DNA of 64,000 nt, from assembly GCA_000004985.1 (NCBI GenBank), contig GG738857.1. One strand, written 5' to 3'. The notes beneath the pieces are model-generated. The model saw only the letters and a program-made list of their open reading frames with translations. It ran no database searches and had not been told where the DNA came from. The stretch's first letter is position 1; every line of letters starts with the position of its first letter. Source of the DNA: Naegleria gruberi. Lineage: Eukaryota. Below are positions 2,744-63,696 of this stretch, one piece after another. The translations under genes and the position numbers were made by a program.

Positions 2744-3607
2744 GCAAGAGAATGAAGAGAACTTAATTGAAGTGTTGAATAGGTGAGATTGTAATATTTG
2801 GATTGGACAATAACTGTATATTAAGAAACAGTGAAACAGGCGGCAATTACACTGCCACAAATACATTGCTTCCACAACTTTGTTGAAACTCTTTTACATC
2901 ACATATTAGGCCAGCTGTTGATAAAATAAATCATGTCCAGGGGTTACAACGACCCACCATTCTTTCTCAAATATGGAAATTTTGAATGGATTAGGATGGT
3001 GCACACAATCCTCCAAATCATTCAACACTTTCCAAGTTGATAATAAAAAACTAGCAAGGAAGGAAAATCTTGAAAAAAATTGAATTGTTTATCAGTCCAA
3101 TCAATTCATTCAAAATTGAGTACCCATGTTTCATCTACTGTTTAGTTTCAATTCATCAACATTGTTCGAAACATAAGAATGACAAGAATCGCCTGCTCTT
3201 CACATTCATGATTGGAGGATCATTGTAAATGTAGAACACTGTTTGATTCTCAATTAAGAATCACGGCATCATGGGTTGTTAGTCGTTACAAATTTGAAAA
3301 TATTTTTGACCCAGACGAATGTGGACGATAACATTTATGTGTTAGAATCTCACATTTCATTGTGATAGCTTCCCCAACAAGGCGATTTTTTTCAAAAACA
3401 AGACACACCACTAAAGAGTGCTCATAATACCATTGTCGAATAATAAATTGCAATCCGAAACTCTCAAAATCTTCTCCGCACACATCCATCTGGAAAATTC
3501 AACACAAAAAATTGAACACACAACACAATATCCAATATCTACTAATATTTCATTCAACTCCACCTTCAAAACTATTCGAAACACAAACAAGAACAAACAA
3601 TAACAAT

Positions 3608-4756
3608 ATGGGCAATCATCATAGCACCAGAAATAACCCGCCAAATTTTCATTCTTCGAAGAATCCAAAAAAACAAAACAACAAACAGCAGCGACACTCT
3701 ACCGGCGATTGTAGTGCAACAATAACAACAAATTCTTGCAAGAATGTAAAAGTTCAAGCAACATCATTATCGGCTGCTTCTGTTGGACAACATCATCCAC
3801 TGGTGAAACCTTTGGCTTTGAATTTACTTCAACAACAACAACAACAAAATGTTGGTTCGGGAGATTGTAAGCAGTCGAGTAGTTGGCAATATCAGCACTT
3901 GATGAGGGAAGATTCGAGAAGATCGACCGTAACAGAGAATGAAGGAAGTTTTTCTCTTGGTAATAATGGTCGTCAATTGTTGGTCGATTTTCATGCTAGT
4001 GCCAAGACTCCACGTCACGTAAGAACTATTATTGATGATGAAGAGGATGATAACATTGAAGAATCGTTTGTAATGATGAGATCTGGAATGATTTATTCAC
4101 ATGATGCTGATAATGGAGAACAATGTGAGAATCCGCAGGCTTCTCCTTCCTCAGTAAGAACTGCCAACATACCAATTCATTCACACATCCACACACAATT
4201 ACCGACCTCTCCTGTTTCACCTCATTCTGATAAGAAAGCTTCCTCCATGCCAAACCTTGGTGTTAATTCTCCATCTCCTAAGAAAAAGCAAGCTCTCAAA
4301 TTGCTTGCCAAAATCAAGAACAAATTCCATCACACCAATAGTGAACGAACAAGTCCTACTGCCTTACAACCTTCCTTGTCAGACAGTGCTCTTTCTTCTC
4401 GTTCTGCTGCCTCTTGTAATAACATTCAACAACAATTATCGAGTTCTTCCCTTTTAAAGATTGATTCCCATCGTTCTATACAATCCTATGCTACAACTAA
4501 TTCCAACAATAATTCATCTGCCACCTTGGTTACTAATGGTCAACCAAACCATAAACCATTGAAAATGAACGAAGATGGTGAGTATGTTGATGAAGATACA
4601 TACTCTAATAGTAGCAGTGAGAGCTTGGACGTCTCTGATAGCGAGCATGGAGACGACGAGGATTACATTGAACAATTTATTCAAGGTACTATGGTACAAA
4701 CCATTGATGATTCCATTTCCTACCTTAAAAATTCAATGAGAAATCAATTGGCTTAA
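3608..4756 (+). CDS. Low-complexity Ser/Asn/Gln-rich protein with acidic C-terminus; N-terminal MGNHHS (possible N-myristoylation)
   Basis: The track ORF 3512-4756 starts on TTG. The first in-frame ATG is 3608 (MGNHHSTRNN...), preceded by an A/C-rich leader. TAA stop at 4754-4756. Function unknown. Confidence 0.4.
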   Translation: MGNHHSTRNNPPNFHSSKNPKKQNNKQQRHSTGDCSATITTNSCKNVKVQATSLSAASVGQHHPLVKPLALNLLQQQQQQNVGSGDCKQSSSWQYQHLMREDSRRSTVTENEGSFSLGNNGRQLLVDFHASAKTPRHVRTIIDDEEDDNIEESFVMMRSGMIYSHDADNGEQCENPQASPSSVRTANIPIHSHIHTQLPTSPVSPHSDKKASSMPNLGVNSPSPKKKQALKLLAKIKNKFHHTNSERTSPTALQPSLSDSALSSRSAASCNNIQQQLSSSSLLKIDSHRSIQSYATTNSNNNSSATLVTNGQPNHKPLKMNEDGEYVDEDTYSNSSSESLDVSDSEHGDDEDYIEQFIQGTMVQTIDDSISYLKNSMRNQLA

Positions 4757-5045
4757 TTTTTTGACTAATTTCCCTAACGTTATAGTTTATCGAGCTAAGC
4801 TGGCGTGAGTAGTGTCAGCGATTTTGAATAAAAACACAATAAAGAGTTATAATTCCATTCTACATCACAACTATTTCAACTGAAGGCTTCTTAACTGCTT
4901 AAGCATGTGATTTACATGATTTAGATCATTAAATCTTGTAATGGACATTATTAAAGTCTGGAAAACTTTCCTTTTATTTTTTTGGGAAAGGTATTGAGGA
5001 ACGAGGATCATTAAAGCCATTCAAAATCTGAAGATTATTAAATTC

Positions 5046-6212
5046 TTAGTAATACGTTCTTGATTCCTCTCTGACGAGTTTAACAATCCTTCCATCCTCC
5101 TCAATGTTGAACATAACATTTACAATATCGTATGAACCTCCTCCAGCATTGTAATAGAGTGGAAAGACATAGTGATCCAAATGTTTCATTTCAGCACTGT
5201 GGTCATCTAGTAATTGCAGTTTGTTCTTGATTGTTTCGATATCTGACAGAGACAACCACCGCAAGTCTACAATCTCAATGTTTGGACATAATTGAATATT
5301 TGATGAGAGTCCATCTCTTCTAATGCTTTCCATGAGAAGAGATGGTGTTACTTGAGATGGAACAGGATGAGGACTCGACTTGACATAAATCACATCAGAT
5401 AGCTTTATCTTGAGTAAGATATCATTCTTGAACCACCTTTCCAAAATTTCATCTCCATTCTCTTGTAATGTACACAACAGAACAGCTGCAATTGATTCTT
5501 CCAAGGTGAAATTATCCAAGCATAGTTCATCAAACGTGTCCGAAGAAGGTATCACTCGTATTATATCATTGTACAAGTTTGGAACGTAATCACCAACAGA
5601 CAATAATTCATAGACAAGGCAAGTAACATAAATTCCTGTCAATTTCTTCCTCACTGTTTCACTATCGTTGTACTTTTCAATAATTTCACTTCTCAAATCG
5701 AATGGAAATTCATAAAACGAGACACTGTGAGGTAATCTCACATCACCAATTTCCATTGAGATTGGATCTGAATCAAATGGAGAATTCCAATCCTTAACCA
5801 AATCAACATTTCCATAATTCTCTCTAGAAAGACTCTTAATTGAAAATTCCTCCTCATTAATTTCTTTAATTCCAGTCTTTATCTTTTTAGGAAGTTTTGC
5901 AAATTGTAATTGGAGAATTCTGAGCCAATCCACTTCTTCCCTCTGTTCTCCCACTCGTAAATATTCATCACTATTGGTACTACTATTATTACTAAACTCT
6001 AGCTCGGTGATAATTGTATTCATCCCGAATATTTGATCAATTTTTAAAAAATCAATCAAGGCTTGTTTGAACAAAAATTGCATAGATTGAATGGCACGGA
6101 ACCAATCGGAACAAACTCTGAGTGATCTTAATTGTTCATCCAGTGGAAGATAACCCATGATCACTGTGATGATATCACCACAGAGTATGTGAGAGGAATT
6201 GCTTTGCTTCAT
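5046..6212 (-). CDS. F-box-like protein (388 aa)
   Basis: N-terminal ILCGDIITVIMGYLPLDEQLRSLRVCSDWFRAI matches the F-box consensus. ATG at 6212-6210, TAA stop. Confidence 0.5.
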   Translation of the reverse strand: MKQSNSSHILCGDIITVIMGYLPLDEQLRSLRVCSDWFRAIQSMQFLFKQALIDFLKIDQIFGMNTIITELEFSNNSSTNSDEYLRVGEQREEVDWLRILQLQFAKLPKKIKTGIKEINEEEFSIKSLSRENYGNVDLVKDWNSPFDSDPISMEIGDVRLPHSVSFYEFPFDLRSEIIEKYNDSETVRKKLTGIYVTCLVYELLSVGDYVPNLYNDIIRVIPSSDTFDELCLDNFTLEESIAAVLLCTLQENGDEILERWFKNDILLKIKLSDVIYVKSSPHPVPSQVTPSLLMESIRRDGLSSNIQLCPNIEIVDLRWLSLSDIETIKNKLQLLDDHSAEMKHLDHYVFPLYYNAGGGSYDIVNVMFNIEEDGRIVKLVREESRTYY

Positions 6213-6278
6213 TTTTTTTGAACTTGTTTTGTAAACAGAATTGACAACTTGCTGAAATAGATTGGTATTGAGAATTGT

Positions 6279-8534
6279 TTATTCAAGATGAGCAATGGAA
6301 TCTGAAATAATCTTTCTTGTCTTTTCCAATTCTTCATCACTCACCTTACAGTTAGTCAACTTGGATCTCTGCAAGAGAATATTTACCAACTTGTTACTCT
6401 CTTTATCATATTCGAACAAGTAAAAATACTTGTTAAAATCTAGCAATGTAATCTGGTGGCAGATATATGGAATGTTTGCTTCCTTAGAGTAGGGTGAGTT
6501 AATCTGACTTGCCAAATATCTCAATAACTGCTGCTTTGGATTGTTCAGTCTTTCTTCGCTAATTGGAACACCATTTCTTTCATCTTCATCTTGATAAATG
6601 GCATCCAACATTGATACATAGTACTCATAAATTGTTCCTTCCTTTCTTCCATAGCAAACTTGTAATGGAATTATATTTTCACTTGGAGGGGTGTATTCTG
6701 GCAATGTAGCATCTCCCTCATCATTCCACATATGTCCAATAGATATTTCATTTGTTTGGGTCTTCAGTCTTTGCCAAACTTCAAAATCATCAAATGGATA
6801 TGCAAAGCACTTTAAAAACTTGTCCTTCAAATCACAAACAAATCCATTGGCCTGCAAATGGAAGTAATTCACACGATCAATCTTTTTCAATTCCTCTCTG
6901 TTCAGATAGAGAACATTTACAAAGGACTGTCTCTCTGAGTCAACACATGAAATGCTCTCCACAAAAATCTTCTTGTACTTTTCCAAAATTTCCAACTTTT
7001 CTGCATAGCTCACATTCTCGTCTCTGTACAAGTGAGCCTTCAATTCTGGATAAAATTCACTAATTTCACTCTTGGAATATAATTCACAACCATATAACAC
7101 TAGGGCAAGTGTTTGACCCAATCTGAAAGCCATAAATTTTAAATCATCTGGATGCAGTTTGCTGGTGAGCTTTGTAAAGTCCATCTCAGCCAAGGATAAT
7201 CGCTTCAATTTGAATGAAGGAACATTGAGTGCCTTGATGCAAAAGCTTCTCACCTCCTTACATCTTCTTACCTTACCAATTAAATTGACAAGTGTCATGC
7301 AAACCTTTAGTGGAACCAATCTTCTGACACGTCCTCTGATTTGACATGGATACTTTTGTTCATGGAGAGGATAAGTTGTGAAAAGAGCATTATTGGCCTC
7401 ATCAACCAATCCCTTAAACACATCAACCAAATATCCCTTATCAGTGTCACTTTTCAATTCGCTATAATCTTCTGATCGAATCAAAACTAAATTTCTATCC
7501 TCAGTTCCAGATGCTCTAATAAACAAATTACAATCATTTTCAGGAGGTAACTTATCCTTGAAAATATAAATGATGTCAACATCAGAGGAATCCTTTGAGC
7601 CATGATGGTAAAATGGCACCTCAACAGCTGTTGGTTGAGCAGAAGAGTTGATAACTTCCTGAGCTGTACTTGTTCCTTCAAACTTGGTAAGAAAATCATT
7701 CAATGAAAATTCCAAATTCCAGCTCTTCTTCCAATCCTTCCATCCCTTCATGACAGAGAAGGTTCTATCTGTATTTCTTGAACTCTCAACTAGTTTGTTC
7801 CATTCCCCAGTCTTGAATAAATCCTGATTGTCAGTTGTCTTGATAATTATAATTTCCTGATTCTTATCTGTAGCATTCAATTCTGAAACAAGTGGATAAC
7901 CCAAAATCAGCAAGTCAGCACAATTCAGAACTGAACTCGTCTCATTGGTTAAATCTTCCTCCAGAAACATAATCTTATTCAACCAATTCTTCTTATGACC
8001 CAATAATTTACAAACCCAATTTATCTTTGTGGTCATTATTCTAATACATTCATCCCTATCAATACTGAGCGAGTACTTTCCATCATCATTTCCACTAACC
8101 TCATCATTAAAGAATGAAATCTGTGGAATTCTCTTAAAATACACTGAACTATTCACAGGATTCAAAGTTGTGAATAATTTAAAATCAATGGTCTTGTACT
8201 TTTCCTCATACTGATAAACTTCCAACAAAATCCCCTTTGTGTTATCCACTGTCAAATCCTCCTTCGAAAAGAAGTCCCGATCCATCAAAATTTGACTCAA
8301 TTTATACTGATCACCCTTTTCCAAATGAAAACCAGCAGGCTTCCTCATCATTTCAAGTGGTGATGGAATTTTCTTTCCGAATTTTTCGCAATATCTTTCA
8401 TAAAGCACCTGATCCAGCCTATATAAACAATTATCCATGTTGATAAATATTTTTCTTCTTTTTGTATTCTTTGTTGTGGAGCCTGATGAGCTGCACGAGT
8501 GGGTGTGATTGCTGTCAGAGGCCATGTTGAGCAT
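6279..8534 (-). CDS. Large hypothetical protein (about 751 aa from first in-frame ATG); contains a GS...DxD motif suggestive of a nucleotidyltransferase fold
   Basis: The track ORF 6279-8732 starts on TTG. The first in-frame ATG is 8534 (MLNMASDSNHTH...), with a poly-A leader just upstream on the coding strand. Motif FYHHGSKDSSDVDIIYIF. No confident family call. Confidence 0.5.
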   Translation of the reverse strand: MLNMASDSNHTHSCSSSGSTTKNTKRRKIFINMDNCLYRLDQVLYERYCEKFGKKIPSPLEMMRKPAGFHLEKGDQYKLSQILMDRDFFSKEDLTVDNTKGILLEVYQYEEKYKTIDFKLFTTLNPVNSSVYFKRIPQISFFNDEVSGNDDGKYSLSIDRDECIRIMTTKINWVCKLLGHKKNWLNKIMFLEEDLTNETSSVLNCADLLILGYPLVSELNATDKNQEIIIIKTTDNQDLFKTGEWNKLVESSRNTDRTFSVMKGWKDWKKSWNLEFSLNDFLTKFEGTSTAQEVINSSAQPTAVEVPFYHHGSKDSSDVDIIYIFKDKLPPENDCNLFIRASGTEDRNLVLIRSEDYSELKSDTDKGYLVDVFKGLVDEANNALFTTYPLHEQKYPCQIRGRVRRLVPLKVCMTLVNLIGKVRRCKEVRSFCIKALNVPSFKLKRLSLAEMDFTKLTSKLHPDDLKFMAFRLGQTLALVLYGCELYSKSEISEFYPELKAHLYRDENVSYAEKLEILEKYKKIFVESISCVDSERQSFVNVLYLNREELKKIDRVNYFHLQANGFVCDLKDKFLKCFAYPFDDFEVWQRLKTQTNEISIGHMWNDEGDATLPEYTPPSENIIPLQVCYGRKEGTIYEYYVSMLDAIYQDEDERNGVPISEERLNNPKQQLLRYLASQINSPYSKEANIPYICHQITLLDFNKYFYLFEYDKESNKLVNILLQRSKLTNCKVSDEELEKTRKIISDSIAHLE

Positions 8535-33356: not shown

Positions 33357-33406
33357 NNNNNNNNNNNNNNNNNNNNNNNNNNNNNNNNNNNNNNNNNNNN
33401 NNNNNN
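33357..33406. other. Assembly gap (50 N)
   Basis: Run of N in the sequence. Confidence 0.99.
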
Positions 33407-43313: not shown

Positions 43314-44236
43314 NNNNNNNNNNNNNNNNNNNNNNNNNNNNNNNNNNNNNNNNNNNNNNNNNNNNNNNNNNNNNNNNNNNNNNNNNNNNNNNNNNNNNNN
43401 NNNNNNNNNNNNNNNNNNNNNNNNNNNNNNNNNNNNNNNNNNNNNNNNNNNNNNNNNNNNNNNNNNNNNNNNNNNNNNNNNNNNNNNNNNNNNNNNNNNN
43501 NNNNNNNNNNNNNNNNNNNNNNNNNNNNNNNNNNNNNNNNNNNNNNNNNNNNNNNNNNNNNNNNNNNNNNNNNNNNNNNNNNNNNNNNNNNNNNNNNNNN
43601 NNNNNNNNNNNNNNNNNNNNNNNNNNNNNNNNNNNNNNNNNNNNNNNNNNNNNNNNNNNNNNNNNNNNNNNNNNNNNNNNNNNNNNNNNNNNNNNNNNNN
43701 NNNNNNNNNNNNNNNNNNNNNNNNNNNNNNNNNNNNNNNNNNNNNNNNNNNNNNNNNNNNNNNNNNNNNNNNNNNNNNNNNNNNNNNNNNNNNNNNNNNN
43801 NNNNNNNNNNNNNNNNNNNNNNNNNNNNNNNNNNNNNNNNNNNNNNNNNNNNNNNNNNNNNNNNNNNNNNNNNNNNNNNNNNNNNNNNNNNNNNNNNNNN
43901 NNNNNNNNNNNNNNNNNNNNNNNNNNNNNNNNNNNNNNNNNNNNNNNNNNNNNNNNNNNNNNNNNNNNNNNNNNNNNNNNNNNNNNNNNNNNNNNNNNNN
44001 NNNNNNNNNNNNNNNNNNNNNNNNNNNNNNNNNNNNNNNNNNNNNNNNNNNNNNNNNNNNNNNNNNNNNNNNNNNNNNNNNNNNNNNNNNNNNNNNNNNN
44101 NNNNNNNNNNNNNNNNNNNNNNNNNNNNNNNNNNNNNNNNNNNNNNNNNNNNNNNNNNNNNNNNNNNNNNNNNNNNNNNNNNNNNNNNNNNNNNNNNNNN
44201 NNNNNNNNNNNNNNNNNNNNNNNNNNNNNNNNNNNN
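43314..44236. other. Assembly gap (923 N)
   Basis: Run of N. The track ORF 43309-44256 and the X-stretches are gap artefacts. Confidence 0.99.
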
Positions 44237-50316: not shown

Positions 50317-50828
50317 ATGGTTTCCGATAGTCACTTCCACTCCTCATCCTCCCAGCAGGATTTCCAACAAGTTGTGCAACAATACAAGTTTACCATAGAA
50401 GCAATTTTCGATAACCAAGAAGCAAGAGCTTTGTTTAGAAGCTTTTTGAAGAAGGATTTGAATGAAGGTATGTTGTGATGTTTAGTTTTATTGTTTATTA
50501 ATTACAAATTCTTTACAAATAGAACCATTCCTTTTCTATGAATCTGTTGAAAAGTATAACAAGACAAGACTTGATAAGAATAGATTCGAATTGGCTAGTG
50601 AAATAATAGACAAGTTTATGGTTGTGGGAGCTCAACACGAATTGAATTTGTCAACTACACTGAGGAATGACATTTTGAAATCATGGAAACAAATATACGA
50701 AAAGAATAAGGATTTACCTGACTCTGATTTGATAACGTGTCCAAAAGATTTATTCACTAAGGCCCAAGACATAATTTTCATTGAACTCAAACAAGATAAT
50801 TTCCCAAGATTTGTAAATTCAGAAACTT
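50317..50828 (+). CDS. RGS (regulator of G-protein signalling) domain protein, 3' end in gap (partial); join(50317..50467,50523..50828)
   Basis: FRSFLKKDLNEEPFLFYESVEKY (RGS N-terminal core, restored across a 55-nt GTATGT...AATAG intron at 50468-50522) and IFIELKQDNFPRFVNSE (RGS C-terminal helix). The frame runs into the N-run at 50829. Confidence 0.65.
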
Positions 50829-51993
50829 NNNNNNNNNNNNNNNNNNNNNNNNNNNNNNNNNNNNNNNNNNNNNNNNNNNNNNNNNNNNNNNNNNNNNNNN
50901 NNNNNNNNNNNNNNNNNNNNNNNNNNNNNNNNNNNNNNNNNNNNNNNNNNNNNNNNNNNNNNNNNNNNNNNNNNNNNNNNNNNNNNNNNNNNNNNNNNNN
51001 NNNNNNNNNNNNNNNNNNNNNNNNNNNNNNNNNNNNNNNNNNNNNNNNNNNNNNNNNNNNNNNNNNNNNNNNNNNNNNNNNNNNNNNNNNNNNNNNNNNN
51101 NNNNNNNNNNNNNNNNNNNNNNNNNNNNNNNNNNNNNNNNNNNNNNNNNNNNNNNNNNNNNNNNNNNNNNNNNNNNNNNNNNNNNNNNNNNNNNNNNNNN
51201 NNNNNNNNNNNNNNNNNNNNNNNNNNNNNNNNNNNNNNNNNNNNNNNNNNNNNNNNNNNNNNNNNNNNNNNNNNNNNNNNNNNNNNNNNNNNNNNNNNNN
51301 NNNNNNNNNNNNNNNNNNNNNNNNNNNNNNNNNNNNNNNNNNNNNNNNNNNNNNNNNNNNNNNNNNNNNNNNNNNNNNNNNNNNNNNNNNNNNNNNNNNN
51401 NNNNNNNNNNNNNNNNNNNNNNNNNNNNNNNNNNNNNNNNNNNNNNNNNNNNNNNNNNNNNNNNNNNNNNNNNNNNNNNNNNNNNNNNNNNNNNNNNNNN
51501 NNNNNNNNNNNNNNNNNNNNNNNNNNNNNNNNNNNNNNNNNNNNNNNNNNNNNNNNNNNNNNNNNNNNNNNNNNNNNNNNNNNNNNNNNNNNNNNNNNNN
51601 NNNNNNNNNNNNNNNNNNNNNNNNNNNNNNNNNNNNNNNNNNNNNNNNNNNNNNNNNNNNNNNNNNNNNNNNNNNNNNNNNNNNNNNNNNNNNNNNNNNN
51701 NNNNNNNNNNNNNNNNNNNNNNNNNNNNNNNNNNNNNNNNNNNNNNNNNNNNNNNNNNNNNNNNNNNNNNNNNNNNNNNNNNNNNNNNNNNNNNNNNNNN
51801 NNNNNNNNNNNNNNNNNNNNNNNNNNNNNNNNNNNNNNNNNNNNNNNNNNNNNNNNNNNNNNNNNNNNNNNNNNNNNNNNNNNNNNNNNNNNNNNNNNNN
51901 NNNNNNNNNNNNNNNNNNNNNNNNNNNNNNNNNNNNNNNNNNNNNNNNNNNNNNNNNNNNNNNNNNNNNNNNNNNNNNNNNNNNNNNNNNNNN
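50829..51993. other. Assembly gap (1165 N)
   Basis: Run of N. Track ORFs 50591-51997 and 50819-52015 are extended through N and are artefactual beyond the gap edges. Confidence 0.99.
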
Positions 51994-54220: not shown

Positions 54221-56176
54221 ATGATTACCAAAACAGAAGAGGTGGTAAACGGTATGACTATAATAACTCCAACAAAAATGGAGGAAAAAATGGAACCTCA
54301 AATTCCAAGTGACCCCATAATAGGGGGAAGGTTATCCAAATTTTCAAAGGAGTGGGAAAAGATAACCTCCAACAAAACAATATTAGATTGGGTAAAGAAT
54401 GGTCTAACAATCAACCACAACCCCCAACTAATCCATCCACTTCCACAGAGAGAACCAACGAAAGAGAAAGAGAAAATTTGGTTCCAAGAACACATAGAAC
54501 AACTGAAACAACAAGAAATGATTATAGAAGTTTCCAACAAAGAAGAAGTATTAATTCACCCAATCTACCTCATACCAAAGCGAAATTCAACAGAGCCATT
54601 CAGACCAATTTTAGATATGAGAGGGGCAAACTCTGGAATAGAAACGCTTCACTTCAAACAAGAAACGTTGAAGACAATAATGAAATTGTTAAAAAGAGGT
54701 CAATGGTGTGGAAAAATAGATCTGAAATCTGGTTACAATCACCTAAAAATAGAACGCAATTCACAGCATCTTCTAGCCTTCCAATTCAACAACAAAAGGT
54801 ACAAATACACAACTCTTCCATTTGGGCTAAATATCGCACCAAGAACATTTCACAAGATTATGAAAACAGCAATCACTCAATTAAGAAAAGAAAGTATAGT
54901 CATATTCTTCTATCTGGACGATATTTTAATAATAGGAAATTCCTTTCAAGAATGTCAGAAAAACATAGAAAGAACGAGACAATTATTAGAAAGTCTTGGC
55001 TTTGTAATTCAGATGAAAAAGTCAGTACTGTCTCCTGTTCAAGAAATAGATTTTTTAGGATCAACAATCAACACAAAACTAGGAACACTTTGTCTTCAGA
55101 AAGAAAAAATCAACACAGCCCAAAAGATCCTCAAGAAACTAGAATTGAAACATTTAAGTCAACGAAGAATCAAGATCAGAAAGTTCCAATCAATAATAGG
55201 GAAATTGATGTTCCTAAGTACAATAGACAAGAACTTAAGACCTTTTCTAATTCGACCTCAACATCACATTTCAAATATGGTAACAAAGAAAGGATGGTTA
55301 GGAGAAATGCATATCTTACGAAGCGATTTTCAAGATTTAAAGACAATCTCTGCAATCCTAAAACAATCAAAAGGAACAACGTTCGAACTAGAAACAACAT
55401 TACAAATCCTAACAACGGACTCATCGACGACAGGTTTTGGTGGAGTATCCAAAAACCTAATAATGCATGGCAGATGGAGCCATCAAATTCAAGAATACCA
55501 TATCAATTTAAAAGAATTACTAGCAGTCGAACAAATGATATTGGCAATTCAAAAGAACAAGTCTTTTTCAAAAGGAACACAATTTCACGTACGAACAGAC
55601 AATCAAGTAATCATGACTTACCTCAAGAATGGAGGAGGAAAAGTAGATTACTTAGCAACAGTAGCAAGAAGAATATGGAAAATATGTATCAACAACAATT
55701 GGCTAATCAGAAAAGTAACGTACCTTCCTTCCAAAGAAAATTTCTTTGCAGACAAGCTCTCAAGATTGGGAGAATGGGAAATAATCAATTCAACTTTCAA
55801 TCAACTCCAGCAAAAATTTGGTCCTTTCAGCATAGACCAATTTGCAAGCCAAACAAATTGCAAAGTAAGAAGGTTCGGTCAAAGAAACTTCTATCAGGAT
55901 GCTTTTTTGAACAATTGGGAACAGGAGAACAATTATTTGGTTCCTCCCTTAGGCTTAATCCTCCCAACAGTAACACACTTACTAAAAAGCAAAGCAAAGG
56001 CTCTTCTAATCGTTCCAAAATGGGAAAGCGCAGTTTGGTGGCCAGTTCTAATGAAGATAACACAAGAAACATTATTCTTAACGAAAGAGGACATGATCTT
56101 CAATCAAGACATGGAACTATCCAGAAACTCAGAATGGAACTTTGTAGCACTAAAGGTTCAAGCAACCACCTACTAA
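54221..56176 (+). CDS. ORF2, reverse transcriptase plus RNase H of the DIRS/Ngaro-like element (651 aa)
   Basis: RT motifs (IPKRNSTEPFRPILDMRGAN, FQFNNKRYKYTTLPFGLNIAPRTF, IFFYLDDILIIG). RNase H (TDNQVIMTYLKNGGGK...ENFFADKLSR). The DIRS-typical downstream block FSIDQFASQTNCKVRRF...LVPPLGLILPTV...ALLIVPKWESAVWWPVL. Confidence 0.8.
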   Translation: MITKTEEVVNGMTIITPTKMEEKMEPQIPSDPIIGGRLSKFSKEWEKITSNKTILDWVKNGLTINHNPQLIHPLPQREPTKEKEKIWFQEHIEQLKQQEMIIEVSNKEEVLIHPIYLIPKRNSTEPFRPILDMRGANSGIETLHFKQETLKTIMKLLKRGQWCGKIDLKSGYNHLKIERNSQHLLAFQFNNKRYKYTTLPFGLNIAPRTFHKIMKTAITQLRKESIVIFFYLDDILIIGNSFQECQKNIERTRQLLESLGFVIQMKKSVLSPVQEIDFLGSTINTKLGTLCLQKEKINTAQKILKKLELKHLSQRRIKIRKFQSIIGKLMFLSTIDKNLRPFLIRPQHHISNMVTKKGWLGEMHILRSDFQDLKTISAILKQSKGTTFELETTLQILTTDSSTTGFGGVSKNLIMHGRWSHQIQEYHINLKELLAVEQMILAIQKNKSFSKGTQFHVRTDNQVIMTYLKNGGGKVDYLATVARRIWKICINNNWLIRKVTYLPSKENFFADKLSRLGEWEIINSTFNQLQQKFGPFSIDQFASQTNCKVRRFGQRNFYQDAFLNNWEQENNYLVPPLGLILPTVTHLLKSKAKALLIVPKWESAVWWPVLMKITQETLFLTKEDMIFNQDMELSRNSEWNFVALKVQATTY

Positions 56177-57099
56177 CATTATTCAAAGCAAGAGATGTTA
56201 TCCTCAAATACAAGTTAGCTGATTCGACAATCAGAACATACAGAAACCACGTTAACAAATTTAAAGATTTTTGTTTCTGGTATAACATTGAAAGATGTTG
56301 GAATCTGAATTCCATTTCCCTTTATCTCACAAACATGTTATTGAAAGGCTCAGGTGGGTCAGTGAAACAAGCATGTGCCGCCCTTCAACATGAAACCAAA
56401 TGTTTGGGCATTGTGGTTGATTGGAAAAATTCAATAATTTCCGATATCAGATCATCTACAACAAAGATATGGTCTCTCTTTGATAGAGAAAAACTAATTA
56501 GAGAACCATTTGATTTAGCTAACCTAAAATATTGGTTAGAAAACCCACCAAACATTGACCCTTGGTCATTCAAACTCTATGCTGCAGTAATTGCTGTTGG
56601 TGTTCGTGCATTAATGAGACCTGGAGAGTTAGCGGATTTGTCATTCGGTGATGTGTCTTACAATAAGGATGGTCATTTAGTTTTCACTTTAGGACAAACA
56701 AAAACAGATCAACAAGGAAAAGGTGAAAAAATTACTATTGAACCTTCCTATTCCGAAATATGTCCTGTCAAAATATTCCAAACCTATTATGATCACTGTA
56801 AGCAATTTAAATCTCCTAAGTGCCCATTATTTAGCAACCCTAGATCCAACACATTCTTTAGAACTGCAGATATTTCTAATATAGTGAAATATGTATCACA
56901 ACATAATCCAAACAACACTTCAATTGTCTCTGGACATTCACTTAGAAAAAGAGGTGCTACACATCTTGCAAAATCTGGTTACACATCTTCTCAACTAAAA
57001 GTTGCTGGACGATGGAGATCTGATTGTTACTTAACATACATATCAGAAGAAATCTTACCTTCCTTAGGTACTTCAAATACTTTATTCTCGGGACAATAA
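56134..57099 (+). CDS. ORF3, tyrosine recombinase (YR) of the DIRS/Ngaro-like element; part of a 915-codon open frame (54352-57099) overlapping ORF2 in the +1 frame
   Basis: YR catalytic residues in order: VRALMRPGELADL (Arg), HSLRKRGATHLAKSGY (His-x-x-Arg), GRWRSDCYLTYI (Tyr). First ATG after the ORF2 stop region is at 56134. The stop at 57097-57099 abuts repeat B1. Confidence 0.75.
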   Translation: MELCSTKGSSNHLLTLFKARDVILKYKLADSTIRTYRNHVNKFKDFCFWYNIERCWNLNSISLYLTNMLLKGSGGSVKQACAALQHETKCLGIVVDWKNSIISDIRSSTTKIWSLFDREKLIREPFDLANLKYWLENPPNIDPWSFKLYAAVIAVGVRALMRPGELADLSFGDVSYNKDGHLVFTLGQTKTDQQGKGEKITIEPSYSEICPVKIFQTYYDHCKQFKSPKCPLFSNPRSNTFFRTADISNIVKYVSQHNPNNTSIVSGHSLRKRGATHLAKSGYTSSQLKVAGRWRSDCYLTYISEEILPSLGTSNTLFSGQ

Positions 57100-57881: not shown

Positions 57882-58895
57882 ATGTTTAAAAGAAATTACA
57901 AAAAAATGCAAGAAATCAACGAGCACCCATTCGACGATTTGATCATTAGTAAAATATTAGAATATCTATCCTCATCCACATTAGAAATCATCAATTTAGG
58001 ACAAGTTTGCAAATCATTCCGAAGAATTTGTCTTCATCCTTCCACAAAATTATCATTTTCCAATTATTTATCCAAAAATCGTGATGAAAATTGTGATGAA
58101 TACAATGATCATGATACAGTGAAGGAATATTTACCATTTAATTGGGAAGCATGTTTCGATTTTTTACAATATTTCACAACGATTGATTTGGGATGTCAAT
58201 TTGGGATGCCAGATGCAATGGATTATATTGTTAATGTGGCACTTGCATCGACGAAAATTGAAGAATTATATTTGAAAAATTGTGAAATTTATGCATTGAC
58301 TAATGTAAATTGTAAAATATCGAGATTGGAATGTTGTCAAGTTGTCGTTCCATTACAATTTGAAAGTATTATTCAATATTTTCCTTATTTGAAACATTTA
58401 AAAGTTGAAGATTGTCATGTCCAGTTGGAATGTTCACCAAAATTGCAAATGATATGCGAATGCTTGGAAAGTTTAGTTGCAATTGATTCGTTGAAAGATT
58501 TATTTACAATTAATATTCAATTTGGTCAATTAACAGAATTGACATTTATTTCAACGTTTGAACAGGAAATGTATTTTGAGAAAATTGATTATTGTATGAA
58601 TTATGAAAATTTTCCAAAATTGAAAAAGTTAACTTTGAAAGTTCCATCGAAATGCATTCAATTAGATTTACCAATTTTGGAAGAATTAGTATTGGAAGCA
58701 GAAATAGATTATTATGATTTTCGATCAATGCACACAATGCTTAAATTAGAAAATTTAAAAAAATTGGAAACTACTTCTTTCGATGTATGCAAAGCCAATT
58801 TAATTGCTCCAAATTTGGAAACTTTGATCATTAGAGACGAATTTAACATTGTAAAATCGTGGAATATTAATCCGATTCCCCAAATCGATAAATAA
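57882..58895 (+). CDS. F-box protein (337 aa); start codon lies 5 bp downstream of transposon repeat B2
   Basis: DDLIISKILEYLSSSTLEIINLGQVCKSFRRI is an F-box motif. ATG at 57882, TAA stop. Confidence 0.55.
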   Translation: MFKRNYKKMQEINEHPFDDLIISKILEYLSSSTLEIINLGQVCKSFRRICLHPSTKLSFSNYLSKNRDENCDEYNDHDTVKEYLPFNWEACFDFLQYFTTIDLGCQFGMPDAMDYIVNVALASTKIEELYLKNCEIYALTNVNCKISRLECCQVVVPLQFESIIQYFPYLKHLKVEDCHVQLECSPKLQMICECLESLVAIDSLKDLFTINIQFGQLTELTFISTFEQEMYFEKIDYCMNYENFPKLKKLTLKVPSKCIQLDLPILEELVLEAEIDYYDFRSMHTMLKLENLKKLETTSFDVCKANLIAPNLETLIIRDEFNIVKSWNINPIPQIDK

Positions 58896-59181
58896 TTTTA
58901 TTGTAGTTTCTTTCCCTGGGGAACCCCTTTAATTTCTTAGAGTTCAACTATTACTAGAGCTAAACCTAATATCATACCAATGATTGATCTATTCGATTGT
59001 GTGTTTAATTGTTACATGTAAACTTGATCACTTTCCACTTTCTTTCCATTACAACATGCATTTTAGAAGAATATTTGATTTATCAATTTTCAATGAAACA
59101 TTGAGTTTTACGAGGTTTCACACATTCTGAGAAATAAATAGAGTGCCTCTTCCTAATTGGGAATGAGACAAGAGAAAAAAA

Positions 59182-62100
59182 ATGCAACAATTTGTAAAGC
59201 GAGCAAAGAGTAGGGAGAATGGAAGGGATGGCCAACTGTAAGTGTTTTGGTGTGTTTAGAATAATAATTATTGATGTTTCGAATAGTGGTCAAAGAGGTG
59301 AAAATGGTCATGTAAGTTAAAACTAAAGATATTCATCATACATTATTGATGTGCATAGACTGGAAGACACGGTGCTCACGGATATGGTCATGGAGGGAAT
59401 GGCTATCACGGAGAAAGGTAAATTAAACTAATATTTAACTAAAATATCTTCAAAAAGAGGAGGCAATGGATTTAACGCAACCAATGCTTGGCATGGTGAG
59501 AATGGTGAAGATGCAAAACACGGCAAAGATATTCACATTCTATTGGAAGGTGATGTCATGTCAACTGTTGTTGTGAGTGGTGACTTTAGTTATGGAGGAG
59601 GTGTTTGTGAGATGGTTTGTGTATCAGAGGGAGGAAAGTAAGTTTAGCTTTAAATGCACATGTATTGAAATTAATATTCGAAAGTGGTGGAAATGGTGGA
59701 AAGTAAGTTTGGTTTTGTGAATAATGTTATTAATTTACAAAAAAAATAGTGGTGGAAAGGGAGGCGAGTAAGTAGAAGAATTCCTATAGTTCTGTATTCT
59801 AATTTCGAATAGTGGTGGAGCTGGTGGTCAGTAAGTTTTACTTTAATTTCTATTCGAAATGAACATTTGAAAAAGAGGTGGAATAGGAGGTGCTGGTTCA
59901 CAAGGTAAAAGAGGTGCACCAGGTCAAAATGGAGAAAGGTAAGCAATTATTCTTAACATTAGATTCTAATATTAATATTCGAAATGTAGAGGTGGAAATG
60001 GTGGCAAGTAAGTTTTACATTTTGCAATTATACGAATCAATTCAGTGGTGGAGAGTAAGTTTTTCAAAATTTCATTAAAATTCACTTTTCAAGTGGTGGA
60101 GAGTAAGTAAGAAAGTCTTTTTTAAACTTTATTCGAAACTAATTAGTGGTGGCCATGGAGGAAAGTAAGTTGTTCCTTAATTTTGTAAACAATTTTTACA
60201 CAAACAAGTGGAGGAAATGGTGGCAGGTAAGTTGAAAAAAGGAAATTTCATATTCAAATAACCTTTCGAATAGAGGAGGAAATGGTGGAAATGGAGGATC
60301 AGTCTATATTGACACCACCAATCCATATTTATTGAATTATATTGAAGGAACGAGTATTTCAGGAAGAGGAGGATCTGGTGGTAGAGGTGGAAATGGAGGA
60401 ATTGGTGGCAGTGGTGGAAGGTAAGTGAACTTTCGAATATGTTGAAATTGCAACCTGTTTAAAAGTCCTGGAGAGGGTGGACATGCTGGAAAGGGAGGTG
60501 ATCCAGGTGATCCAATCACCATTACTAGAACTCTTCCAGATAATAGAGTTCACACAGAAATTAAGAGATTTCATCATGGACCAGATGGATCAAAAGGTTA
60601 CAGAGGAAAACAAGGAAAATCTGGAACTAATGGTCAATCAGGACAATCAGGACAACAAGGAACTGATGGAGTTTGTGGAGCTGTCATGTACAGAGTTCTT
60701 GATCCATTCACTAAAATGGTCATTGAACAATCAGCTAAAAAGTACAAACTCAAAGTTATTGATTTTTCATTTGTTCCATTAATTGATGATGGAATTTTGG
60801 AACCAGGAGAACAAGCCAAGATTACAAATTTTGTAATTAAGAATGAAGGTGGATTGACTGCTCCTGCAGGTGCTGAGGTTTCATTGACTGGTGATGGATT
60901 TACTGTTTGTAATATTCCAAAATTCATTCTTCCACAACCAATCGTGCCAGGTCAAGTAATTACTATCACTGATCAGGAATTTCTTGTCCGAGTTGAAGAA
61001 AGAATGAATAAGGAACCAAGAAATTTTGGATCTTTTGCTGCCAATGTCAGATTGAATACTCCAACTAAATATTATGATAAGAAACATGCTAAGGGATGTG
61101 AGAAGAATTTCACAGCAAGACTTCCATTGGCAATTGAATATGCCAACTGTACAAAGGCAATGGATAAACTTCAAAGAGGAATAATGAAGGTTGGTGTGAA
61201 GAATTTGGCAACATTACCTTATGGATCTATGAGTCAATCGATGGTTTGTCAAGTTGGATTGAAAATTGATTTTGATCCAAGAATGGTTGTTTTCCCAGAG
61301 TTGATTCCTAATGCAACAATGGTTGAACCAACCAGTCTCTATATTGAAATTCCAAATTTAATGGCTCTTTCATGTTTGGAACATAATATTGAGTTTGCAT
61401 TCACTGATAGAGTTAATTATTTCGACACCTTGTACTATTCCATTTCTCTTATTTATAAGGGAGAACAAATTGAAAAGCATCTGATGGATGTGAGAATGGC
61501 TCCTTCCTATATGCCTTCACCTCAAGGAGAAAATACATACGATGTCATTTTCTTTACTAATTCTCATATTAATAATGTGGAATTTATGAATTATATGAGA
61601 ATATTTGATGGATTAGCATTGAGAGTTAATTTCTGGGATATTCAAATTAATCAAGGATTGAGTTTCTTCAATAATGATGGAAGAACCAGACATCCAATTA
61701 CTTGGACCAATGATAATCAAGGAAAGGTAATTGTTTATCCAATGGCAAATGATATGGAATATCAACTCATGTTCTCCCATGATATTGTCAATATTGTAAA
61801 GCCAAATCCAGAAAACAAATTATTAGAAGGTGGAATAATTCTAGTTGGTAATGTAACCAATCAACAATTTATTGCCCATTTGAGAACTGCTTCAACAGAA
61901 GTCAAAATTCCAGACGATTCCATCTCTGACAGCTATGTCATTTCAAAGCCAGTTCGTGATCATTTAACTCAAAAATCCAATGAATACATTAAGAAGGTTG
62001 CAGTTACCAAACCAGCTCAGAATTTAGTACTTGGCAGAACTGTTTTCAATCCAAAGAAAATTGGTTCATTCAAAACGCTTTTAGGAGAAGCTTATTATTT

Positions 62101-62833
62101 GGAATTTGGTTTGTTGGCCAATGCCAATTGTTATGCCATCAATTCCAACTCTGCAAACTTCCTCTCACAACAAAGATCAGCCACTCTGTCCACACTCTCC
62201 GGTGTAGGTCAAATGACCATGTCAATCTTGTTGGCTCTTCCACTTCCAAAATTGTTGTACATTTTGAGAAATCCAACAGAATGGCTCAAGACAACAAGAT
62301 TTTACAATGAGTACAAATCTACTGAACAAGGATATTACGAATTGATTGCCTGTGCCTTGTATTGTAAGATTTATCATTCCATTATTTTGAATAGCAAATT
62401 GGAAGAGAATTTGAATTATATTTTACAAGAGTTTGAAAAGCAAACCTCCAATTATGAGAAGAATCCTGAAAAGATTGCCATTTGTGAAGCTCTCTTGTTG
62501 GCTTTCCATCATTTGGGTTCTCAAATCAAGTGGAAAGTTTCACTTTTTAAGAGCTTACCACAAAAAGATTCGTTTGACAAGTTTATGGAATCATTTTCAC
62601 AAGTTTTATCAAAGATTATTGGAGATCCTAATCATGTTAAGAATTTAAAGAAGAATCTTCCAACTATGATTAAGGATTTGGGAAGAGAAAATTATCTTCA
62701 CATTTTGGCAAGTATTCACAGACTTGTCTATGATCAATATCATAAGGCCATTGAGGATGAAATAAGATTGAAGGAAAAGACAGGTCTATTCGCATCAGTT
62801 TCGACTGATTCTCCTGTTAATTATTTAGATTAG
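59182..62833 (+). CDS. Collagen-like / glycine-rich protein with large C-terminal domain of unknown family; 15 exons including nine micro-exons of 9-18 nt; join(59182..59237,59287..59311,59359..59417,59458..59637,59695..59712,59750..59767,59813..59830,59876..59938,59990..60007,60046..60054,60094..60102,60147..60164,60209..60226,60274..60420,60466..62833)
   Basis: Every proposed exon is flanked by AG| and |GTAAGT (or GTAAGC/GTAAAT). All intron phases are mutually consistent across the array. The spliced frame enters the 715-aa ORF 60686-62833 in the correct phase. Exons encode GxGGxGG / G-X-Y units (GQRGENGH, GRHGAHGYGHGGNGYHGE, NGGNGGK, GGKGGE, GGAGGQ, GGIGGAGSQGKRGAPGQNGE, PGEGGHAGKGGDPGDP, GSKGYRGKQGKSGTNGQSGQSGQQGTDG). 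TAG stop at 62831-62833. Confidence 0.65.
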
Positions 62834-62886: not shown

Positions 62887-63696
62887 TTACTTTCTCTTAT
62901 AAAGAATCATAAAGTTCTTTCTCAATTTAGCTTGTTCAACCTGTTTCTTAAACTCAACTCTTCTCTTTCTCCAATCAAATTCGTATTTGAGATTCTCTGA
63001 TTGCATATTGAGCTTGGCAGTTTCCAATTGAAGTAAATCTCTCTCGGAAAGAATGTACTTTAACTTGATGTTTCCACAAACTCTATCATGATATTTCATA
63101 TACTTGTTTTTAAAGTGTTTGTGGCATTTTGGACATTCTTCCAAACAATCGGCAGTTTTCTTCTTGTTTACACTCTTCTTTAGGAAGATTTTCTTTGGAA
63201 TGCACTCAGTTGAGTGAGATTTCTTGCAGGTTACTTGTTCTTCTCCTTTAGAATAGGCCTTCTTCAATTGCTCCTTGTAAAAGTTTCTTGATTCATAGTA
63301 CATTTCTTCCAATTGAGCAACTCTTCCTTTCATCATCATTAGTTCACTTTCTAATTGTTTCTTCTCCCTTAATAAAGCTTGAATAAACTCCATTTGCTTC
63401 ATTTCAGAGCTTTCACATTTTGTAACTGTTGGTTCTTGAATTTGAGGAACTTTTTCAACATTTTCATTAATTTCATTCTTGAAAATCTTTTTTTCTCTTT
63501 TCTTTTCGGAAGCTTTCAATGCCAAATCAACACGAATTGACTTTCTCTTCAAATAGGGTTGTTTCTTAACCCAAACCTTCTTTTGGATGACAACATTATC
63601 AAAATCATGACAATTTTCTTCATTAAAATGTTGACAATTGACTTGTTCTGGTTGACAAACTTCCAATTCTCCTTCCGTTGATTCAATAAAAGTCAT
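62887..63696 (-). CDS. Coiled-coil protein with C-terminal CCHC (UBZ-like) zinc finger (269 aa)
   Basis: Heptad-rich K/E-rich middle region. CPKCHKHFKNKYMKYHDRVC fits a C-x2-C...H...C zinc finger. ATG at 63696, TAA stop. Confidence 0.5.
   Translation of the reverse strand: MTFIESTEGELEVCQPEQVNCQHFNEENCHDFDNVVIQKKVWVKKQPYLKRKSIRVDLALKASEKKREKKIFKNEINENVEKVPQIQEPTVTKCESSEMKQMEFIQALLREKKQLESELMMMKGRVAQLEEMYYESRNFYKEQLKKAYSKGEEQVTCKKSHSTECIPKKIFLKKSVNKKKTADCLEECPKCHKHFKNKYMKYHDRVCGNIKLKYILSERDLLQLETAKLNMQSENLKYEFDWRKRRVEFKKQVEQAKLRKNFMILYKRK

Follow-up and report, generated by a model that had tools for sequence, protein, structure and literature searches.

The exons of vertebrate fibrillar collagen genes follow a 54-bp rule and start with a whole Gly codon. 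Schistosoma micro-exon genes (MEGs) code for small secreted products, are composed mostly of micro-exons and are diversified by exon skipping, and the spider flagelliform silk gene consists of iterated exon-intron units under concerted evolution, with highly similar introns and large repeats. Little is understood of how new spliceosomal introns originate, and there are few clear cases of recent date. At the protein level, the glycine-rich polyproline-II bundle domains that have been reviewed include those of the snow-flea and Granisotoma antifreeze proteins (2PNE and 7JJV), the N-terminal domain of Obg and the glycine-rich domain of ALK (bioRxiv 10.1101/2023.11.25.568672). The subject of this report is NAEGRDRAFT_79042, a gene of Naegleria gruberi in a 64,000-nucleotide stretch of contig GG738857.1 (assembly GCA_000004985.1; the whole stretch is called the window below), in which a conserved glycine-repeat segment is predicted to be cut by same-phase introns into exons of mostly 9 or 18 nucleotides (nt).

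The gene is not new and already has a public annotation. A lineage-specific, same-phase, length-neutral intron array in a conserved structural repeat appears to be undescribed, and a search of the literature on the gene (by its identifiers), on DUF7932 and on micro-exons or intron gain in Naegleria returned no paper specific to these. The product is a 1007-amino-acid, probably intracellular protein of the uncharacterized DUF7932 family. The explanation offered here, namely a functional gene of this family with a polyproline-II module, whose introns were gained in the Naegleria lineage and copied between repeats, is regarded as a whole as slightly on the probable side.

With the fibrillar collagen genes, the Naegleria gene shares Gly-X-Y coding in short exons that are multiples of 9 nt (exons 5-13 measure 18, 18, 18, 63, 18, 9, 9, 18 and 18 nt). 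In contrast to those genes, the Naegleria array introns split the X codon in phase 2 and leave exons without an intact initial Gly codon; the units measure 9 or 18 nt instead of 54; the GGX runs are nearly devoid of proline; and the array, to judge from its conserved length, did not arise by unit duplication. Tandem symmetric micro-exons of at most 36 nt with lengths divisible by 3, any subset of which could be skipped in frame, are shared with the Schistosoma MEGs. However, 126 of the 3024 coding nt of the Naegleria gene lie in micro-exons, there is no signal peptide and the length is conserved. As in spider flagelliform silk, the protein is glycine-rich and repetitive, and repeats and introns seem to have evolved together by recombination between repeats, but the intron interiors of Naegleria are saturated and the exons measure 9-18 nt.

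Gene structure and public annotation

The gene model (Table 1) was built by listing GTAAG-type donors and pairable acceptors and by reading 58600-61000. After splicing, the coding sequence of 3024 nt is divisible by 3, has no internal stop and terminates at 62833, the stop of an open reading frame (ORF) at 60686-62833. Much of this structure had been proposed in a first-pass annotation and was borne out. The 14 GT-AG introns are 38-51 nt long, with 12 GTAAGT donors, one GTAAAT and one GTAAGC, and with AG at every acceptor; two 9-nt and six 18-nt exons lie in an open frame of 1007 codons; and exon 15 reads through in frame into the long ORF. The proposed nine consecutive micro-exons exist as a run of nine exons, one of which has 63 nt. 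Thirteen of the 14 introns, including all from exon 4 on, are in phase 2, and each of the eight exons of 18 nt or less is entered and left in this phase. Retention of any of the 12 phase-2 introns with a GTAAGT or GTAAGC donor would continue the frame as NNG-TAA, with an immediate in-frame TAA. The array holds at least 10 introns per 264 coding nt, or about one per 26 nt, and the exceptional intron density remarked on at first is thus real.

A chance origin of this structure, judged very unlikely from the outset, is not credible because of the clustering of GTAAGT (12 of its 17 copies on the plus strand of the window fall within this 1.3 kb), the match of the spliced N-terminus to a hidden Markov model (HMM) of non-Naegleria N-terminal modules (133 bits, against a maximum of -50 for 500 residue shuffles) and the pattern of differences in a second strain. 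The gene model, together with a gain of its introns specific to Naegleria, is held with high confidence. In another gene of the window, a likely short intron with a GTATGT donor was seen at 50468-50522 on the plus strand (gaaggtatgttg...caaatag). The introns of the window are therefore not all GTAAGT-led, and the GTAAGT count underestimates introns elsewhere.

Table 1. Features of NAEGRDRAFT_79042, in positions of the window.
Feature	Position	Strand	Description
Whole coding region	59182..62833	+	15 exons, 14 introns, 1007 codons and stop; frame open once spliced
Exon 1	59182..59237	+	56 nt; ATG at 59182, start as in the public model
Exon 2	59287..59311	+	25 nt; G-X-Y triplets; second strain differs synonymously at 59308
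Exon 3	59359..59417	+	59 nt; G-X-Y triplets
Exon 4	59458..59637	+	180 nt; end of first G-X-Y run, small beta element, start of GGX run 1
Micro-exon 5	59685..59702	+	18 nt, TGGTGGAAATGGTGGAAA; skipped in public annotation
Micro-exon 6	59750..59767	+	18 nt
Micro-exon 7	59813..59830	+	18 nt
Exon 8	59876..59938	+	63 nt, 7 Gly-X-Y triplets; 63-nt exon at the matching place in N. lovaniensis
Micro-exon 9	59990..60007	+	18 nt
Micro-exon 10	60046..60054	+	9 nt, TGGTGGAGA; both flanking intron positions shared with N. lovaniensis
Micro-exon 11	60094..60102	+	9 nt, TGGTGGAGA; both flanking intron positions shared with N. lovaniensis
Micro-exon 12	60147..60164	+	18 nt
Micro-exon 13	60209..60226	+	18 nt
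Exon 14	60274..60420	+	147 nt; end of second GGX run, conserved SVYIDTTNPYLLNYIE strand-helix element, third GGX run
Exon 15	60466..62833	+	2368 nt; last G-X-Y run, three immunoglobulin-like beta-sandwiches, alpha/beta domain, helical domain, stop
Introns 1-7	59238-59286, 59312-59358, 59418-59457, 59638-59684, 59703-59749, 59768-59812, 59831-59875	+	GT-AG
Introns 8-14	59939-59989, 60008-60045, 60055-60093, 60103-60146, 60165-60208, 60227-60273, 60421-60465	+	GT-AG
Intron-bearing span	59238..60465	+	14 introns
Pfam DUF7932 (PF25560)	60746..61015	+	Residues 313-402 of 1007; score 40.1 bits (gathering cut-off 27), E 5.6e-10

Intron definition is recognition across short introns with near-consensus donors. 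If splice sites in this gene are paired in that way, and not across exons, exon length would not be limiting, and adjacent introns only 9 nt apart would probably be removed one after another. The locus would then show a protist spliceosome handling 9-nt exons. Every micro-exon is symmetric, and therefore the skipping of any of them preserves the frame.

An exact look-up of the encoded protein returned a 'predicted protein' of 1001 amino acids (EFC46764.1; XP_002679508.1; D2V8W8). The public model (P0002) has 13 of the 14 introns and both 9-nt exons, but is without exon 5, and the new spliced product is identical to the public protein save for 6 added residues. The forecast that such a gene would defeat gene predictors holds to the extent that this model skips one 18-nt exon, as apparently does that of N. 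lovaniensis, but not for the 13 introns that were annotated. Omission of one 18-nt exon from each public model is compatible with exon skipping or with predictor error. The 15-exon model is probably correct and the annotations of the two species are probably each short of one exon, a case of some relevance to annotation practice.

Conservation in a second strain

The entire gene of a second strain is spanned by a 4.3-kb metagenome contig (L001; ENA ERZ929261) that is 98.4% identical. Five indel events were found within the gene (+5, -1, +1, -1 and +1 nt), all of them in the predicted introns (628 nt) and none in the 3024 exon nt. The spliced frame differs by 21 synonymous and 3 non-synonymous changes. 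Upstream of the ATG at 60686 there are eight differences, seven of which are synonymous, and the splice-site dinucleotides are kept in all 28 cases. On this comparison, the restriction of indels to introns and the mostly synonymous changes therefore indicate that the upstream exons code for protein and are maintained by purifying selection. Both strains have equally many exon-intron units, so that no copy-number variation is seen between them.

The array in Naegleria lovaniensis

The N. lovaniensis protein was mapped back to its own locus (L002; PYSW02000015.1). As annotated, this gene has 16 introns and micro-exons of 9, 27, 63, 9, 9, 9, 9, 18 and 5 nt. An unannotated 18-nt exon was found at 7227-7244 of the locus, within a single long intron of 180 nt (cacag/TGGGGGCTCAGGTGGCGA/gtaggt), and the public protein is probably 6 residues short. 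Eight array introns are at identical positions in the two species, two occur only in N. gruberi and three only in N. lovaniensis.

With exon 5 counted in N. gruberi and the unannotated exon in N. lovaniensis, the segment from the strand before GGX run 1 to the NPYLL motif has 88 residues in both Naegleria species. The same segment has 88 residues in the two closest intron-free homologues (P0004 and P0005), and its range across the family is 70-89. Given this conserved coding length, the array is therefore not a length-variable repeat, and the early suggestion of a length-polymorphic or rapidly evolving region is contradicted both here and by the equal unit number of the two strains.

Protein family

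The C-terminal region, which the first-pass annotation had been unable to assign, begins with a Pfam DUF7932 domain (Table 1). C-terminal profile searches of PDB sequences, Pfam and NCBIfam gave DUF7932 alone and nothing further. When the C-terminal 721 residues were compared exhaustively with 1.8 billion representatives by HMMER, 172 homologues were identified, many of which aligned over 350-650 residues of this part. Named homologues belong to N. lovaniensis (XP_044550565.1), Willaertia magna (KAL9656185.1), the sponge Oopsacas minuta (KAI6661803.1), the nemertean Lineus longissimus (XP_064649595.1), the rotifer Adineta steineri and the amoebozoan Vannella. Almost no sequence other than the query came back from word-indexed searches, whether these were started from the C-terminal domain, an 11-sequence alignment or the N. 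lovaniensis protein.

A GGxGG-rich region is present upstream of DUF7932 in all 14 homologues inspected. BLASTP comparison of the spliced N-terminus with P0004 gave no significant score after composition adjustment; a collinear alignment of 44% identity is visible. The collinear HMM match and the GGxGG region in all inspected homologues therefore identify what had been called a collagen-like region as a structured, conserved module and not as low-complexity sequence that expands freely. Over their full length, family members are collinear and share this glycine-repeat N-terminal module, the DUF7932 beta-sandwich and a large C-terminal region of beta-sandwiches, an alpha/beta domain and helices. 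They differ in that animal members have an additional N-terminal domain and in that the repeat module is split into micro-exons only in the Naegleria genes.

A scan of prokaryotic genomes located three bacterial loci, one in a proteobacterial metagenome-assembled genome and two in Bdellovibrio-like ones (L008 and L009). The proteobacterial locus (JAIXQO010000004.1; L007 2158-5361) encodes a full-length homologue of 1067 amino acids with a signal peptide, and the bacterial layout of glycine repeat, DUF7932 and C-terminal region is that of Naegleria. Unlike this bacterial homologue, the N. gruberi protein has no hydrophobic signal sequence or core in its N-terminus (MQQFVKRAKSRENGRDG), which speaks against the earlier suggestion of a surface or matrix protein. 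The bacterial homologues and the patchy, mostly intron-free distribution in eukaryotes are hints of horizontal transfer. Two tandem, intron-free DUF7932 paralogues of about 1240 amino acids were observed on a HiFi contig (ENA ERZ19433661; L004), at 3001-6723 and from 9654, and the family may expand locally in some lineages.

Predicted fold of the glycine-repeat module

The glycine-rich N-terminal module comprises about 290 residues, not the 150 or so estimated at first, and consists of G-X-Y runs on either side of two long GGX runs. In the spliced product, the Gly-x-x periodicity is uninterrupted over 25 consecutive triplets, from GGN... to ...GGS; most of these have Gly at X, and a single Pro occurs within the 75-residue run.

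An AlphaFold2 model of the whole protein, made from a 78-sequence alignment, reached a mean predicted local distance difference test (pLDDT) score of 88.9 and a predicted template modelling (pTM) score of 0.70; residues 1-292 run separately gave a mean pLDDT of 86.8. In these monomer models the glycine runs have pLDDT values of 85-97, are packed within a single chain and contain neither helix nor strand according to DSSP. Polyproline-II and polyglycine-II helices appear to DSSP as neither. Exon 4 codes for strands at model residues 72-104, and the downstream part is modelled as three immunoglobulin-like (Ig-like) beta-sandwiches, the first of which is DUF7932, followed by an alpha/beta domain and a helical domain.

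The top four Foldseek matches of the N-terminal module in the PDB were springtail and snow-flea polyproline-II bundle antifreeze proteins (7JJV, E 2.9e-6; 2PNE and 3BOG). The full-length model gave generic tandem Ig-like matches only, such as integrin legs and transglutaminase barrels, and a PDB profile search with the module matched collagen by periodicity and composition only. Against Pfam Collagen (PF01391) the N. gruberi protein scored 23.5 bits, under the cut-off of 27.2, and its homologues also fell below threshold. The likeness to collagen thus extends to a glycine at every third residue, but not to the family score, the predicted single-chain fold or the best fold matches. The features that recall the polyproline-II bundles are, in turn, the three-residue GGX/GXX periodicity, a confident model without alpha or beta structure and the top Foldseek matches. 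On the strength of the models, a single-chain bundle of polyproline-II/polyglycine-II helices, not a collagen triple helix, is favoured with moderate confidence. DUF7932 is a widespread but unstudied family that may hold one of the largest glycine-rich polyproline-II bundle domains.

Origin of the introns

No introns were found in the homologues of O. minuta (L006), of an environmental eukaryote with dictyostelid-like sequence (L003) and of the eukaryote on the HiFi metagenome contig, each of which is a single uninterrupted ORF. In W. magna the homologue is interrupted three times, by two phase-1 introns and one phase-0 intron. By parsimony, the intron-free or three-intron homologues and the bacterial members therefore point to gain of the introns within the Naegleria lineage. 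The parsimonious reading of the shared and species-specific positions is that most gains predate the split of N. gruberi and N. lovaniensis, with some turnover later. The coding length is equal to that of the intron-free relatives, and the introns therefore appear to have entered an existing repeat instead of arriving with duplicated exon-intron units.

Relative to the 9-nt unit, the 10 array introns all have one and the same position, between the second and third bases of the X codon (GG-NN^N-GG). Their flanks (AAA/T, CGA/T, TCA/A and AGA/T) fit the canonical MAG/R proto-splice site poorly. Between units, short stretches that take in an exon with its splice sites are about 89% alike. The palindrome TTCGAA occurs in eight of the 14 introns of the gene (at 59278, 59677, 59804, 59853, 59978, 60132, 60265 and 60432), mostly as TTCGAA(T)AG at the acceptor. 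It is absent from the 15 introns examined in N. lovaniensis and occurs in one of 13 other GTAAGT-led stretches of the window. The motif may be left over from intron copying or may act as a local splicing signal.

In the explanation proposed here, the GGX-run DNA of the Naegleria lineage acquired short introns at a high density, which cut the coding sequence into symmetric exons of 9 or 18 nt that each correspond to a single complete GGX unit or to a pair of them. As the mechanism, a founder intron, or a few of them, would have been transferred by copying to the corresponding places in adjacent, closely similar GGTGGNAAN repeats, either by intragenic gene conversion or by unequal (compensated) recombination under selection for a fixed length, and the intron interiors would then have diverged to saturation. 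Copying between near-identical repeats would place each intron at exactly the same position of the unit. As a mechanism, such copying is a serious candidate, held a little short of probable.

Several points weigh against this explanation. Alignment of the intron interiors within N. gruberi gave no usable signal, their similarity being marginal (z about 2), and between N. gruberi and N. lovaniensis, orthologous introns resemble one another no more than non-orthologous ones do; the shared TTCGAA of N. gruberi is the one candidate for a direct sequence trace of copying. The Willaertia homologue may or may not be an orthologue of the Naegleria gene. N. fowleri is the closest sequenced relative of N. 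lovaniensis, and a word-indexed search with the N. lovaniensis protein found no orthologue in it that could have revealed the direction of the species differences; the missing match could reflect loss, missing annotation or the limited sensitivity of word-indexed searching. Finally, the splicing of each micro-exon, and of exon 5 especially, has been deduced from the genomic sequence. That deduction is also what would allow the upstream exons to be an annotation artefact or a decaying pseudogene, with the 715-amino-acid ORF alone functional. This is nevertheless extremely improbable, given that seven of the eight substitutions of the second strain upstream of 60686 are synonymous, that no exon indel breaks the frame, that the spliced product is collinear with its homologues and that the array is orthologous in N. 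lovaniensis.

The remaining alternatives concern how the array came about. It was first suggested that it had grown by tandem duplication of whole exon-intron units, forming a length-variable, fast-evolving surface or matrix region. The common phase and flank of the array introns (A/TGGTGG), the exon sizes in multiples of 9, the similarity of exon-plus-splice-site stretches and the recurrence of TTCGAA would all agree with this. Duplication would, however, have lengthened a segment that is equally long in both species and in P0004 and P0005; unit number is identical in the two strains, no array was detected by Tandem Repeats Finder and the intron interiors are unalignable, while a surface or matrix role is opposed by the lack of a signal peptide and by conservation of the module across some 170 homologues. 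Growth by unit duplication has thus been largely refuted already and is considered very unlikely. It is highly improbable, too, that the eukaryotic family had these introns from the start and that Naegleria alone has retained them. Intron loss is common, retroposed or horizontally moved copies are intron-free, and only a handful of homologous loci were compared. Yet all three non-heterolobosean loci are intron-free, Willaertia, the nearest genus examined, has its three introns in other phases, bacterial homologues have the same architecture, and ten same-phase introns in 264 coding nt would be an unprecedented ancestral state. Independent gains by site-preferring insertion (reverse splicing, an introner-like element or break repair), with each GGX unit offering a preferred site and with no copying, would explain why phase and context are alike at every site and why intron interiors are unrelated, and the introns specific to either Naegleria species would show continuing turnover. 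On the other hand, the flanks fit the proto-splice site poorly, neither terminal repeats nor target-site duplications are evident, and GTAAGT-led introns are rare elsewhere in the window, with no sign of an active intron-spreading element. Independent insertion is accordingly regarded as possible but rather unlikely.

Insertion into an existing repeat, followed by copying between repeats, is the reading preferred here. The common phase and context, the absence of the introns elsewhere, the species differences and the strict length together allow insertion into a repeat already present to be told apart from duplication of exon-intron units, and the locus is a clear natural example of clustered intron gain in a genome with sparse introns. 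A bolder version, regarded as unlikely, is that about 10 introns were gained in one burst within the GGX segment and were copied from repeat to repeat by recombination, in a gene otherwise free of introns and perhaps acquired horizontally; the 9- and 18-nt exons would then encode whole polyproline-II turns, and regulated skipping could resize individual helices of the bundle in frame. If true, splicing would here tune a protein fold in a way that is new, and the locus would be a dated, dissectable case of intron multiplication.

Genomic neighbourhood

The immediate upstream neighbour of the gene, at 57882-58895 on the plus strand, encodes a 337-amino-acid F-box-like and leucine-rich-repeat protein (Pfam F-box-like, E 1.4e-5). 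Downstream, a convergent ORF on the minus strand (62887-63696) codes for 269 amino acids rich in Lys and Glu, without a Pfam match, and its stop is about 50 nt from that of the gene. Runs of N, that is, assembly gaps, occupy 33357-33406, 43314-44236 and 50829-51993, and none of them reaches the gene. These runs account for the rows of the composition profile that look extremely AT-rich, and the very low guanine-cytosine content at 50-52 kb proved to be one such gap. About 2 kb upstream of the gene, a 915-amino-acid ORF at 54352-57099 on the plus strand matches the tyrosine recombinase family in its C-terminal part (Pfam Phage_integrase, E 5e-8) and is a candidate DIRS- or Crypton-like mobile element.

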